The translations under genes and the position numbers were made by a program. Source: Bacteroidota bacterium (GTDB lineage: Bacteria; Bacteroidota; Ignavibacteria; Kapaibacteriales; UBA961). Taken from it: a DNA stretch of 64,000 bases. Where the stretch lies: positions 27,220-91,219 of the forward strand of contig SXZI01000063.1 in assembly GCA_005788035.1 (NCBI GenBank). The letters run 5' to 3'. The notes beneath the pieces are model-generated. The model was given only the letters and a program-made list of their open reading frames with translations, was not told the DNA's origin and did no database searches. This document shows positions 22,112 to 26,485 of the stretch, piece by piece; position 1 is the first letter of the stretch; every line of letters begins with the position of its first letter.

Positions 22112-22850
22112 GTTTGTCGTTGATACGAAGAAATATCCAAAACCCAGAAGTAGGCATCATAATGCAGCAAATGTCTATTTTCCATTGCAACAATTAGAGA
22201 AGATACCAAAGTATTATCCGCCTATCATTACTACAATAAATTGGAATGATGTGTTTTCCAATGGCTTACCTCCTAATATATTGGATATTGGTTGCGGATG
22301 GGGAGCATTTCTTTTCAATTTTGCTAAATCTCATCCTGAATCAAATATTCTGGGAATTGAGATACGAAAGATCTTAACTGACTGGATATATGAAGTCACC
22401 CAAGGAGAACATATACATAATGCACATGCTTTATGGTATTCACTCCCAAATGGATTACCATTTTTGGAAAATTCGTCCATTGATACATTTTTTTCATTTT
22501 TCCCTGATCCGTGGGTCAAGAAAAAGCATCACAAAAGAAGGGCTTTTTCGCAAGAACTGGTACATGAGATTATTCGATTGGCTAGGCATAATTCTAAGTT
22601 ATACATCATGACCGATGTTCCGGAAGTCGCCGAATATCAAATTGCCTTATTGAAAACATTCCCTATGATTAAGAATACATACACTGAATTCATAGGAGAA
22701 ATAGATGCAGAATGGAATGTAGTACTAAAAGACCTTCGTGCCGATATTTCAGGTTCATCATGGGACCTTCCTTCCACAGATCAAGAAATATTTTCTCAGA
22801 AAAAGAATATTTCCTATATACGATTGACTTTTTCGATCCATAGCACATGA
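22104..22850 (+). CDS. trmB: tRNA (guanine46-N7)-methyltransferase.
   Basis: SAM motif ILDIGCGWGAF and the FPDPW motif. Confidence 0.8.
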   Translation: MNEFVVDTKKYPKPRSRHHNAANVYFPLQQLEKIPKYYPPIITTINWNDVFSNGLPPNILDIGCGWGAFLFNFAKSHPESNILGIEIRKILTDWIYEVTQGEHIHNAHALWYSLPNGLPFLENSSIDTFFSFFPDPWVKKKHHKRRAFSQELVHEIIRLARHNSKLYIMTDVPEVAEYQIALLKTFPMIKNTYTEFIGEIDAEWNVVLKDLRADISGSSWDLPSTDQEIFSQKKNISYIRLTFSIHST

Positions 22851-23473
22851 TGACCTCAGTGAATATTCTTGATTTCTTTGAGCATCAGCCTCTTACATCA
22901 TCGCTCATATTGTTTGCATATCAAACAGGTTGGTTTCCAATGGCTGATGATGAGGATGGTGATATATACTGGCATTCACCAGAGAGAAGAGCTATTATAC
23001 CACTTGAAAAAACCTATTTAAGAAACTCACTTACTAAATCATTTGCTAAGTCAGAATGTTCATTTACGATCAATTCCAATTTTCAACATGTCATTGAACA
23101 ATGTTCGAATAGAACCACAACATGGATCAACTCAGACATTATTTCTGTGTACTGTGAACTTCATCAAAGAGGTTTTGCACATTCTGTTGAAGTATGGAAG
23201 AATAATGAGATTGTAGGAGGTCTATATGGTGTTTCCATTGGAGCTGCTTTTTTTGGGGAATCCATGTTCAGTCATATAAGTAATGCATCTAAACATGCAT
23301 TTGTGTATTTGTATACCCATCTTCTATCAAAGAACTTTTTACTCCTTGATTCACAGTATATCAATGATCATACACAATCACTTGGTGCTATTACAGTTTC
23401 ACGAAAGGAATATTTAGAAATGCTTTCAAATGCAGTACACAGAAGTGATATTAATTTTATGCAAGAGTTATGA
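22847..23473 (+). CDS. aat: Leucyl/phenylalanyl-tRNA--protein transferase.
   Basis: GWFPMADDEDGDIYWHSPERRAIIPLE, typical L/F-transferase N-terminus. 208 aa. Confidence 0.75.
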   Translation: MMTSVNILDFFEHQPLTSSLILFAYQTGWFPMADDEDGDIYWHSPERRAIIPLEKTYLRNSLTKSFAKSECSFTINSNFQHVIEQCSNRTTTWINSDIISVYCELHQRGFAHSVEVWKNNEIVGGLYGVSIGAAFFGESMFSHISNASKHAFVYLYTHLLSKNFLLLDSQYINDHTQSLGAITVSRKEYLEMLSNAVHRSDINFMQEL

Positions 23474-23949
23474 GAACAATAACTATCGAAAGTAATGGTA
23501 GACTCGAACGTACAGCAATCTATGTGAATGGCGAGCAAGTCACTGGTGTTAGAGAACTCCTCATATCTATTGATGAAGAAGGTACTTTTCATTCCATCAT
23601 TTCATTCATTAGTGGATCTGGCATACAAGTAACCAAACAATTATTTACAGATGACATTTCGCAATTACAAAGAAAAGAAGCTGCTTTCACTTCTGAAGAA
23701 TCTTTCCAATTACAATCATTTAGCATTGAAAGTGATGGTGACTTAGAACAAACATCACTTTTTATGAATGATGATTTTGTTGAAGGTGTAGTTTCAATAA
23801 TTATTCATATCAGAATTGAAACTTCACAACCAACTAAATCGTTATTTTCTTGGTTTACAAAACATCGTAATGTACATGAGAATGTCTTTCAGACTGAAAT
23901 AGTCTTTAGGAATCCCAATGGTACCCAATCAGTTGAAACTATTTTTTGA
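23470..23949 (+). CDS. Hypothetical protein with an internal tandem duplication of a roughly 55-aa module.
   Basis: ITIESNGRLERTAIYVNGEQVTGVRELLISI aligns with FSIESDGDLEQTSLFMNDDFVEGVVSIIIHI. The ATG overlaps the aat stop (ATGA). Confidence 0.5.
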   Translation: MRTITIESNGRLERTAIYVNGEQVTGVRELLISIDEEGTFHSIISFISGSGIQVTKQLFTDDISQLQRKEAAFTSEESFQLQSFSIESDGDLEQTSLFMNDDFVEGVVSIIIHIRIETSQPTKSLFSWFTKHRNVHENVFQTEIVFRNPNGTQSVETIF

Positions 23950-23957
23950 GGAAAAGT

Positions 23958-24572
23958 ATGTCCGCATTTATAAAACATATATATGCATTGCTCTTTATGT
24001 GCATGCTTTCTTTCATAGTGTTACCAATTACAGTTGATGCTAGATCTGGTTTTGGTAGGGGAGGAGGAAGATCATTTGGATCTCGATCATTTGGTGGAAA
24101 TCGTTCTTTTGGTTCTTCCAATAGAAATTCATTTGGTTCCTCACGAAGTTTTTCTAGTGGCAGAGGCTTCCGTTCAAGTTCTACCGGTAGATTTGCAAAT
24201 GGACAGCAATATAGAATGCGATATGGTATTCCACGTAAATCCTCTTCAATGAAAATCAATCAAAATGGTTCAAATAGAAATTATACGATGCATTCTTATG
24301 GAGGATTGGGTGATGGTTTTATGACCGGTTATCTACTTGGTTCTATTCCATGGTATTGGCATATGCCTTTTCATCCAGCATTCTATTATTCTCGCCCTGT
24401 AATTGTTGATGGTGCTAATGGTTCAAAAGAAGTCTATCCCGGAACATTCTCATTTGGATCGATAATCATGGCAATTATACTTATAAGCGGAGTTGGTTTT
24501 GTAATATATGCTCTGTTTTTTAGAAGAAGAAGTCAAATCCGTGAATATGGTGATTATTCATCATTTGGTTAA
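23958..24572 (+). CDS. Membrane-anchored low-complexity protein rich in RGG / RSFG repeats.
   Basis: GAGGA Shine-Dalgarno (ribosome-binding) sequence then ATG at 23958. N-terminal signal/anchor (ALLFMCMLSFIVLPITVDA), about 60 aa of GFGRGGGRSFGSRSFGGNRSFGSS... and a C-terminal TM helix (IIMAIILISGVGFVIYALFF). Confidence 0.5.
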   Translation: MSAFIKHIYALLFMCMLSFIVLPITVDARSGFGRGGGRSFGSRSFGGNRSFGSSNRNSFGSSRSFSSGRGFRSSSTGRFANGQQYRMRYGIPRKSSSMKINQNGSNRNYTMHSYGGLGDGFMTGYLLGSIPWYWHMPFHPAFYYSRPVIVDGANGSKEVYPGTFSFGSIIMAIILISGVGFVIYALFFRRRSQIREYGDYSSFG

Positions 24573-25877
24573 TTATTGTTGTATAGTCATAAATATATTC
24601 ACCGCCCTAGAACGTTGTCTTTTGCTGTCCGATGATTCAGTACGATCCAATAGTCGAACACCTTCGCCAAGTATATCATAGGATTTCAAACCACATTCTA
24701 TTAGAAAATCAGCTACTGAATTAGCTCTTTTTAGCGACAATGCTTTATTGTAATTGCTTGATCCTCGATCGTCTGCGTAACCTCTGATGATCACATGTTT
24801 ATTTTTATCTCTCACACCGCGACACAACTCTCTTAATTGTTCACTATGTCTTGGTAGAAGTTTCCATTCATTTGTTTCAAAATACAACTCCATTGATGTG
24901 TCTGAATGATTTGTTAAAGTGGGTTGAGCCAAAGATATCTCTTCTTTTTGTTCCTGAGGCCTGATTTCTGGTTGAAGACAAACAAAATATATTCCTTCTT
25001 GATCATTATCTGCATCTGTTGAAATAATACATGCTGTGTCACCACGGGAAGTAAGTGTGATGGAACGCTCATTTCCTGCAGTATTGATATAAGGACCAAG
25101 ATTAACGGGCTTGGACCATTGAGTCCAAGTGTCATCTAGACGTCTAGTCATGAACAAATCCGAACCGCCATAGCCTCCAAATCCATTTGAATAAAAATAG
25201 AGTGTCTTATTATCTTGAGCTAGAAATGGCGACCCCTCCCTTGAATTTGTATTGATTGAATTTCCCATCCAAATTGGTTTTGACCAAATATTCTGATTAT
25301 TCTTCAAAGAAACATATAAATCAAGATCTCCTAATGATCCTTGGTGACTCATGGCTAATATCAATACATTCTGATCTGCATTCATAGTTGCAAAATACTG
25401 TGCTGAATTCATTGTGAAATCACTTATCGTGAATTGTTTACCAATAGACCAAGAATTTCCAAATAGTTGTGCCATGTGAAATGTTAGATTTCCATCATAT
25501 GACACTGATGCTACAAATGCTGAATTACCATCAGCAGTAATAGAAAATAAAGCATTGGAATTCGGAGTGTTAATCGTAGGGCCTGCATTGATGGGTGCTG
25601 TCCAGAATTTACTATTTACTCTGTCTGAATACCATATATCGTCAGGATCATTGACCCCTCCAATATTATTGGGATGTTCTTTTCTTACAAAATACAAACG
25701 TGATCCTGATGGATGCAAAACAGGAAGTAAAGTCCTTGAATAGCTATTTACAATATCAGGAAGTCTTTCTTTGCAGTAAAAGGTTTGTTGTGCCTGAACA
25801 GATACTGCAAGAAAGAAGAGTATGAAAAGTAAAGATGAAAAGATCAATTGTTGAATTGTGCTTTTATTGAACTCCAT
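24573..25877 (-). CDS. OmpA-family protein with TolB-like (PD40) beta-propeller repeats.
   Basis: Signal peptide. PD40-like repeats. C-terminal OmpA domain IIRGYADDRGSSNYNKALSLKRANSV. Confidence 0.7.
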   Translation of the reverse strand: MEFNKSTIQQLIFSSLLFILFFLAVSVQAQQTFYCKERLPDIVNSYSRTLLPVLHPSGSRLYFVRKEHPNNIGGVNDPDDIWYSDRVNSKFWTAPINAGPTINTPNSNALFSITADGNSAFVASVSYDGNLTFHMAQLFGNSWSIGKQFTISDFTMNSAQYFATMNADQNVLILAMSHQGSLGDLDLYVSLKNNQNIWSKPIWMGNSINTNSREGSPFLAQDNKTLYFYSNGFGGYGGSDLFMTRRLDDTWTQWSKPVNLGPYINTAGNERSITLTSRGDTACIISTDADNDQEGIYFVCLQPEIRPQEQKEEISLAQPTLTNHSDTSMELYFETNEWKLLPRHSEQLRELCRGVRDKNKHVIIRGYADDRGSSNYNKALSLKRANSVADFLIECGLKSYDILGEGVRLLDRTESSDSKRQRSRAVNIFMTIQQ

Positions 25878-26485
25878 GTTGCACCGATAGAATCTTTGAT
25901 AAGTAAATAATCAGACCATCTTTGTATTGACCAGAGTCCATTTTTTTGCCTTTTCATAACAAATCGTAATCCACCGGAAGAAACATTCTGTATAGACGCA
26001 ACATTATGTGGAAGAGTCAAAACATAATCCGATTGTACGATAACTGAATCCGGAGTAATGCCATCAAATACCGTATTCATAAACTTTAATTCGGTATTAG
26101 CATCTTTTGGGATCTTGGACAGGACATTTTGAAAATAAGCTCTTTCTTGATTTATTGACCATTGTTGAAACAATCCTGAGTATCTGGTCAATACTTCAAT
26201 GCTAGGTTCAAATACAAAGAGTTGAGCATTTTGTTCTAGTGTATCTGATAAACAACGAATATACCCGGTTGGATCTTTATACTGAATTGATTTTTTTAGA
26301 TTTATCAATACAGTTTGATAATCGAAAGCTGGATCATACTGCACAGTATTTCCAGGTGATTCCGGTGTTCTTGTATCGAGCAAAGAACATGAAACGCAAT
26401 TCATAATGATCAAACTGAATATACTAGAAACAAGTACATTACATAGTAATTCTTGATTCCAGGGCTTTCGATAATGTTGCTTCAT
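25844..26485 (-). CDS. Hypothetical exported protein or lipoprotein.
   Basis: N-terminal basic region plus hydrophobic stretch VLVSSIFSLIIMNCVSC. An alternative start at Met28 (26404) would remove the 47-nt overlap with recR. Confidence 0.4.
   Translation of the reverse strand: MKQHYRKPWNQELLCNVLVSSIFSLIIMNCVSCSLLDTRTPESPGNTVQYDPAFDYQTVLINLKKSIQYKDPTGYIRCLSDTLEQNAQLFVFEPSIEVLTRYSGLFQQWSINQERAYFQNVLSKIPKDANTELKFMNTVFDGITPDSVIVQSDYVLTLPHNVASIQNVSSGGLRFVMKRQKNGLWSIQRWSDYLLIKDSIGATWSSIKAQFNN

Follow-up and report, generated by a model that had tools for sequence, protein, structure and literature searches.

An open reading frame at positions 23958–24572 (+) of the window (the whole 64,000-nt stretch of DNA that was analysed) is a real, conserved gene with an architecture beyond chance, since this architecture recurs in 131 database proteins and the low-complexity tail of the product is under purifying selection. 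Together with the gene for an acidic protein located directly upstream, this gene (the target) makes up a two-gene cassette; sequence comparisons indicate that this cassette, not an aat operon, is the conserved functional unit. We propose, with a probability of roughly 40%, that the target is a type I inner-membrane protein whose SFG-containing arm would bind an anionic component of the cell envelope and whose SSF-ending tail would dock the acidic partner, the pair acting as a trans-membrane tether or sensor. Within this explanation, the architecture and the cassette are highly probable.

The target frame is intact and has 204 codons, from ATG 23958 to the stop codon at 24570–24572, with a product of 204 aa. 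ATG 23958 was chosen over the in-frame TTG at 23946 because homologues in the alignment share the first Met of the target. A GAGGA Shine-Dalgarno-like motif (23948..23952, +) overlaps the TGA stop codon of the upstream gene (23947–23949) and lies 5 nt before the target ATG. The peptides quoted in the initial annotation, GFGRGGGRSFGSRSFGGNRSFGSSNRNSFGSSRSFSSGRGFRSSS and WYWHMPFHPAFYY, are both present in this ORF, and the succession described there (signal/anchor helix, low-complexity S/G/R/F region, aromatic segment and C-terminal TM helix) was confirmed in full. Strongly hydrophobic segments of the protein are confined to residues ~3–28 and ~166–190.

Residues 29–80 (24042..24197, +) form a disordered polycationic tail made of S (31%), G (25%), R (19%) and F (15%), which jointly account for 90% of its residues; the net charge is +10 and there is no D or E. 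The entropy of the tail is 2.35 bits versus 3.0–3.9 bits in the other regions of the target, and AlphaFold2, run with an alignment of 82 sequences, gave pLDDT <50 to residues 26–77. The low-complexity stretch is therefore present as described, although its length is 52 aa rather than the ‘about 60’ given earlier. Its repeated unit is (R/N)SFG, in four copies; an extra SFG occurs just before the TM helix and one more at the C-terminus of the target. In the family, a near-invariant GGRSFG opens the tail and a motif of SFGGxR type closes it; S39, F40 and G41 are invariant in the family alignment, while S73 and F74 are nearly so. Tails of family members are 50–98 aa long, contain two to eight SF motifs and have a mean charge of +13 (range +9 to +24). 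Such a composition had been called unusual for a bacterial membrane protein; this holds, and the composition is conserved as well.

In comparisons of the target with six close relatives, dN/dS was 0.02–0.31 in every region, which indicates purifying selection throughout; the values for the tail were 0.05–0.25, with a length difference of at most one codon (51–52 aligned codons). These data bear on the reading in which the gene is non-functional, either a pseudogene or a simple-sequence expansion. The low-complexity composition of the tail could be taken in its favor, and so could a P/E/L-rich 106-aa ORF on the opposite strand (23939–24259, −) that overlaps the low-complexity coding region; this antisense ORF is probably a shadow of biased codon content, not a gene. 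With an intact frame, conserved motifs inside a tail that evolves under selection at constant length, hundreds of homologues and no tandem repeat found by a DNA search of the low-complexity region, the non-functional reading has next to no chance of being correct and we consider it ruled out. The initial annotation had said that its view of the gene would fall if no relative conserved the gene or if the region turned out to be a pseudogene expansion; the homologues, the selection and the absence of a tandem repeat exclude both.

A search of 5.8 billion proteins produced 131 homologues at E ≤ 1e-3, all of 195–250 aa. Those that have a name are all ‘hypothetical’, and those labeled with an organism come mainly from Kapabacteria, Ignavibacteria or FCB-group MAGs. 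A profile search among 1.8 billion cluster representatives gave 55 representatives at E < 1e-30, and a scan of reference genomes, with one genome for each species, revealed 195 loci that encode it. The cassette occurs once per genome in 195 species-level genomes, which belong to a coherent lineage and show gradually declining identities. Neither the target nor its partner had a match above threshold in Pfam, NCBIfam, PADLOC or PHROGs, and in the literature on Tim44-like bacterial proteins and on Kapabacteria we found nothing specific. The target family, of well over 100 proteins, is unannotated and previously undescribed. Several MAG records with a Kapabacteria-type cassette (L022, L024, L026, L030–L033, L039, L047, L056 and others) have odd titles, ‘uncultured Hyphomicrobiales’, ‘Patescibacteria group’ or ‘Chloroflexota’, which look like taxonomic mislabels or mis-binned contigs.

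Members of the family follow one plan, which runs from the signal segment through (R/K)R-GGGRSFGGSR, an S/T/P/R/K linker that varies, SFGGxR, Y..YGxPRK and NYxVHxYGG to G(F/L)MTGYMMG, WxWxMPFHPAFYYSRP, DG...VYPPTFS, the TM helix, an R/K cluster and SSF followed by one residue.

The first 28 residues (23958..24041, +) are predicted to be a Sec signal peptide, with a hydropathy peak at residues 3–28 and a predicted cut after VDA, before R29. Among 80 parsed sequences, the residue preceding the basic tract is Ala in 51, and 25 more have the pattern LA|Q; the residue after the predicted cleavage site is Arg in 69 and Lys in 11. The Q rule of Bacteroidetes does not hold for the whole FCB group (PMC5837995), therefore we used the LA|Q pattern solely as evidence for Ala at position −1. 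The n-region carries 2.7 Lys+Arg on average in the family. A positive n-region, a hydrophobic core, small residues at −3/−1 and a TM helix followed by basic residues are what is expected, at the sequence level, of a type I protein exported by Sec and processed by signal peptidase I. From the signal-peptide features and the R/K cluster after the C-terminal TM helix we infer that the signal peptide is cleaved, that the tail and the aromatic domain would reside outside the cytoplasm and that the SSF end would stay inside. Arg-Arg directly after the cleavage site and a tail of +13 are unfavorable for Sec export in E. coli.

The proposed topology makes it unlikely that the tail binds RNA or drives phase separation in the cytoplasm, as suggested earlier, since sequence rules would put the tail on the other side of the membrane. 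We also considered an arrangement with a cytoplasmic tail, in which the first hydrophobic segment escapes cleavage and stays as an anchor, or the protein has an inverted or dual topology, and the tail interacts with RNA, DNA or polyphosphate or forms condensates with the partner at the membrane. In the window protein the charge is higher within ~19 residues after the first hydrophobic segment (+3) than ahead of it (+1), the opposite charges of partner and tail would suit complex coacervation, and the R/G/S/F composition resembles that of eukaryotic condensate-forming regions. Nevertheless, this arrangement is unlikely: an Ala-X-Ala-type site is conserved, the R/K cluster after the C-terminal TM helix would need to cross the membrane, tails average only about one RGG, and the N-terminal module is common to Tim44-like proteins, in which the order of domains is consistent with export of the N-terminus.

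The aromatic-rich juxtamembrane domain occupies residues 81–165 (24198..24452, +). It has, in order, a helix, a beta-hairpin, the G-rich helix GFMTGYLLG, WxWxMPFHPAFYYSRP, a second hairpin and VYPGTFSF. In the AlphaFold2 model built with the 82-sequence alignment, pLDDT is about 90 both for this domain and for residues 78–196 as a whole; the predicted elements are a helix (82–89), a hairpin (94–113), a helix (117–126), two short helices, a hairpin (148–160) and the TM helix (166–196). The domain holds the majority of the invariant columns in the family alignment (Y114, M122, G124, Y125, P137, F138, H139, A141, Y143, P147, G155, Y160 and P161), and dN/dS of the aromatic core against the six close relatives is 0.02–0.10. 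The Tyr/Trp/His-rich segment, earlier described as simply following the repeats, is in the model part of a confidently predicted compact domain sited at the membrane, not a loose linker. No PDB match was found for it by fold or by sequence profile, and the model suggests a new fold, a novelty that refers to solved and viral structures. Metal binding by the conserved His and Met residues was considered and is not favored; several second-tier relatives (see below) have no such His.

The TM helix at residues 166–190 (24453..24527, +) reaches a Kyte-Doolittle value of 2.69 and ends in an RR(R) stop-transfer cluster. It is followed by a short tail, predicted to be cytoplasmic, of residues 191–204 plus the stop codon (24528..24572, +), with SSF encoded at 24558–24566. 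Across the family the tail after the TM helix has 14–36 aa and a mean charge of +4, and SSF occupies positions −4 to −2 in 79 of 82 members.

The partner gene (23470..23949, +) codes for an unannotated protein of 159 aa with net charge −11. The protein is predicted with confidence to be all-beta (pLDDT 89.8) and has no signal peptide; its two halves are an internal duplication (E 5e-8). Fold and sequence-profile searches found no relative of it in the PDB, and a Foldseek comparison with viral structures gave nothing at E ≤ 0.001.

Six neighborhoods of target homologues were inspected by hand. In all six, a gene for a 158–161-aa protein with no Pfam hits is located directly upstream of the target; it overlaps the target start by 1–4 nt in five contexts and is separated from it by an 8-nt gap in the sixth, while all other neighbors differ among the six. 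The upstream proteins are homologues of the window protein encoded at 23470–23949 (42–57% identity); 40 partner homologues were found, and in most relatives the two genes overlap. In the set of 80 reference loci, a partner homologue lies directly upstream on the same strand in 71 of the 76 loci that can be judged, the other four having no visible partner at contig edges. True exceptions, in which the target has no adjacent partner, are the loci of four species, L043, L044, L051 and L076; L044 and L051 have an adenylosuccinate-synthetase-like gene upstream of the target instead. When all neighbors were clustered without bias, 78 loci contained the target family and 70 the partner family; the next most frequent family appeared in just 18. 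Since the partner is the sole recurrent neighbor across diverse neighborhoods, the two genes appear to constitute a functional unit.

The gene aat (22847–23473) lies two genes upstream of the target. The genes in this string are tightly packed: acylase and TrmB overlap by 8 nt, TrmB and aat by 4 nt, and aat and the partner by 4 nt (the partner start over the aat stop); then an 8-nt gap follows. The initial annotation had described the target as the last member of a tightly coupled operon with aat, and a packed string that includes aat and ends with the target does exist, though the 159-aa gene, which that annotation had left unmentioned, intervenes. Conservation of the target downstream of aat did not extend beyond the clade of the window: aat (counted within 4 kb), TrmB and acylase accompany the target in only 9 of 80 loci, all of them close relatives. 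These three genes are absent from five of the six inspected contexts, and synteny with the window was seen in the close relative P0006 alone. A link to PspA/PspC, suggested by two contexts, was rejected because the PspA-like cluster is present in only seven loci, which also carry the acylase/TrmB/aat neighbors of the window's clade.

Leucyl/phenylalanyl-tRNA-protein transferase, the Aat enzyme, modifies N-terminal Arg or Lys, and the mature protein would begin with one of these two residues in most family members. As aat is also a near neighbor, two genes away on the upstream side, though in no other clade, the target could be an Aat/N-degron substrate. The sparse linkage with aat speaks against this idea, and about a quarter of family members would start with Gln if cut after Ala. 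Furthermore, Aat works in the cytoplasm, but cleavage by signal peptidase creates the new N-terminus on the far side of the membrane. Given the mismatch of compartments and the non-conserved linkage, a functional tie to aat is very improbable.

On its other side, the target stop abuts, with zero intergenic bases (24572/24573), the stop of a convergent gene with PD40 and OmpA domains (24573–25877), which has weak PorE/CHU_0125-like matches. A terminator-like site was found on neither strand at this junction, and counts in the promoter/terminator scan were at shuffle level. Next to it, a gene downstream of recR (25844–26485, −) shares 34 nt with the beginning of the PD40-OmpA gene and encodes a 213-aa protein with no family match and with homologues in eight related loci; its hydrophobic N-terminus followed by Cys residues makes it a possible lipoprotein.

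The layout of the cassette, with an acidic gene first, a basic gene second and overlapping reading frames, is reminiscent of type II toxin-antitoxin operons, and the cassette is found in varied genomic neighborhoods. The target might then be a membrane-active polycationic protein held in check by an acidic upstream antidote. We regard this as highly unlikely: in addition to the lack of PADLOC, PHROGs, Pfam or NCBIfam matches, there is no DNA-binding or known toxin fold, the distribution follows a coherent lineage, with one locus per genome, and strong purifying selection acts on folded and disordered parts alike.

The partner is always acidic (net charge −24 to −10, mean −16) and the target tail is always basic. 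The two charges covary (Spearman rho −0.49, unchanged after control for GC content), also when sequences are reduced to 35 clusters at 70% identity (rho −0.52, p 0.001); on nine clusters the covariation is not significant, and the sequences are not phylogenetically independent. It stems from acidic residues of the partner (rho 0.44), not from the basic ones (rho −0.11), which disfavors an overall increase in charged residues as the cause. Covariation with the charge of the partner is seen in all regions of the target, hence the cytoplasmic tail is not singled out as the contact site.

Charge complementarity of this kind would also be expected if the partner were a chaperone for its client, binding the basic tail in the cytoplasm to keep it soluble or neutral and then passing it to Sec or gating its export, without ever touching the mature target. 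Besides the invariably opposite and covarying charges, with the partner's acidic residues as their source, this account can draw on the difficulty of exporting highly basic segments and on the overlap of the two genes, which would supply both proteins together. It leaves the invariant cytoplasmic C-terminal SSF unexplained, though, and the partner, a rigid two-domain beta protein, is unlike known export chaperones. We consider a chaperone-client relationship rather doubtful.

The tether or sensor that we prefer would work as follows. The signal peptide would be cleaved, and the mature target would then start with its basic tail in the periplasm, anchored by the TM helix. The tail could serve as a flexible polycationic arm that binds anionic material of the envelope, be it peptidoglycan, lipopolysaccharide or the head groups of anionic lipids. 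At the opposite end of the target, the short SSF-ending tail may be where the acidic cytoplasmic partner docks. Arm binding and SSF docking, if both occur, would make the pair a small trans-membrane tether or sensor of the envelope; as to function, this is what we infer from the features described. Counted in favor of the proposal are conservation, purifying selection, the predicted structure of the target, topology rules, linkage to a partner that is confidently folded and has no signal peptide, the invariant SSF and the covarying opposite charges, along with the same N-terminal module being placed ahead of a TM helix in Tim44-like proteins. Counted against it are the strongest electrostatic match, which pairs the partner with a tail predicted to be in the other compartment, as well as the export problem of Arg-Arg and the +13 tail, covariation in all regions, its loss at nine clusters and the four loci with no adjacent partner. 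Neither an RNA-binding RGG role of the target nor a functional link to aat finds support.

A broader version of the proposal takes the pair as an old envelope module of at least Kapabacteria and Ignavibacteria, possibly also of Armatimonadota, in which the exported SFG arm would form a multivalent periplasmic network, a condensate-like layer or a tether controlled by the partner. This version is quite unlikely; were it correct, the ‘AxA-RR-GGGRSFG’ start, found on Tim44-like proteins too, would be a widespread undescribed exported module for targeting or interaction.

Both proteins represent families that lie outside all curated libraries searched and have no relative among solved structures. 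Target and partner belong together as a single conserved genetic unit within a large lineage of uncultured bacteria, and the target supplies a bacterial example of a disordered low-complexity region selected for composition and short SFG motifs, not for exact sequence. By the topology rules, this selected region probably sits outside the cytoplasm; it is tied to the N-terminal module, so far unexplained, that bacterial Tim44-like proteins carry. That module is the sole recognizable piece of the two proteins. If the pair is an envelope tether or sensor, it would be a new component for the cell-envelope biology of Bacteroidota-related (FCB) lineages. For now the pair is a well-delimited conserved unknown, not a demonstrated mechanism.

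The target was not placed in any named family; it resembles exported single-pass membrane proteins with a disordered arm. As in eukaryotic RGG/RG boxes and FG-nucleoporin repeats, its tail is disordered, rich in R, G, S and F and has recurring xSFG motifs. RGG/RG boxes are defined by two or three RGG (or RG) units spaced 0–4 residues apart; the target has a single RGG, at residue 34, and family tails have 0.97 on average, so the ‘RGG-box’ label of the initial annotation had to be dropped. FG-nucleoporins are recognized by many FG motifs with hydrophilic spacers in a long disordered region; the target tail contains four SFG motifs within 52 residues. Unlike both eukaryotic systems, the target has one RGG and four to five SFG motifs, not tens; the acidic or polar spacers that characterize nucleoporins are missing from its tail, which is predicted to be extracytoplasmic, and the target is a bacterial protein.

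In SARAF/DUF1183 proteins (PF06682), as in the target family, a low-complexity linker rich in S, P and G comes after a TM helix. Weak matches to PF06682 were observed in 6 of 30 members and none in the window protein itself; they span only profile positions 162–270 (TM helix and linker). Membership in the SARAF family was rejected: the best member scored 24.8 bits, over profile positions 162–269, versus a gathering score of 30.8 bits, and the SARAF luminal domain is absent.

Second-tier relatives of the target (P0213–P0221), detected by profile search at E 1e-14 to 1e-5, likewise have a signal peptide, a long SFG-rich G/S/R tract, a WYYxPFHPAFYY...YPGGF core and a TM helix; they end in (R/K)YT(N/S)YR, whereas the target family ends in SSF. 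At two loci (L091:3431-4699 and L093:3001-4167) a gene for a 148–155-aa acidic protein (net −12 and −14) is located just upstream of a target-like gene whose GGGGSFGSSR tract is even longer. These loci were attributed to Armatimonadota by way of labeled members of the upstream-gene family, which are Fimbriimonadaceae. We do not claim homology between the upstream protein and the partner, the hhalign probability being 4–6% (5.8%). The target-like ORF of L093 is annotated incompletely, the gene caller having kept just its last 105 codons. Another second-tier relative, P0220, is found among many very short ORFs, beside an RNA-ligase/PHA02142-like gene, in a region (L092:22-5522) that may be phage derived.

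The closest parallel at the N-terminus is with Tim44-like proteins (PF04280), which share with the target a hydrophobic signal segment, Ala-X-Ala and (K/R)R-x-GGG(R/K)S(F/M)G, then an S/T/P/R-rich disordered stretch, a Gly-rich helix, a TM helix and an R/K cluster. Proteins of ~300 aa that match the N-terminal module only are true Tim44-domain proteins (PF04280, E down to 3e-41), with AEA-RR-x-GGGRSFG, the Gly-rich helix, the TM helix and the R/K cluster followed by the Tim44 domain; P0246, P0248, P0256, P0264 and P0272 are Tim44-domain proteins that open with a signal segment and AEA-(K/R)R-x-GGGRS(F/M)G. The match of the module between the target and Tim44-like proteins is modest (E 1e-4 to 1e-6) and partly compositional, and a Pfam scan of the target and 30 relatives found no PF04280. 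The mitochondrial namesake of these proteins is located on the matrix side, the equivalent of the cytoplasmic side. In contrast to Tim44-like proteins, the target has a new aromatic domain before the TM helix, a tail of 14–36 aa after it and, instead of the Tim44 domain, a separate partner protein. The comparison suggests that the signal segment with AEA-(K/R)R-x-GGGRS(F/M)G is a shared, as yet undescribed, N-terminal module, predicted to be exported, that is used by otherwise unrelated membrane proteins.
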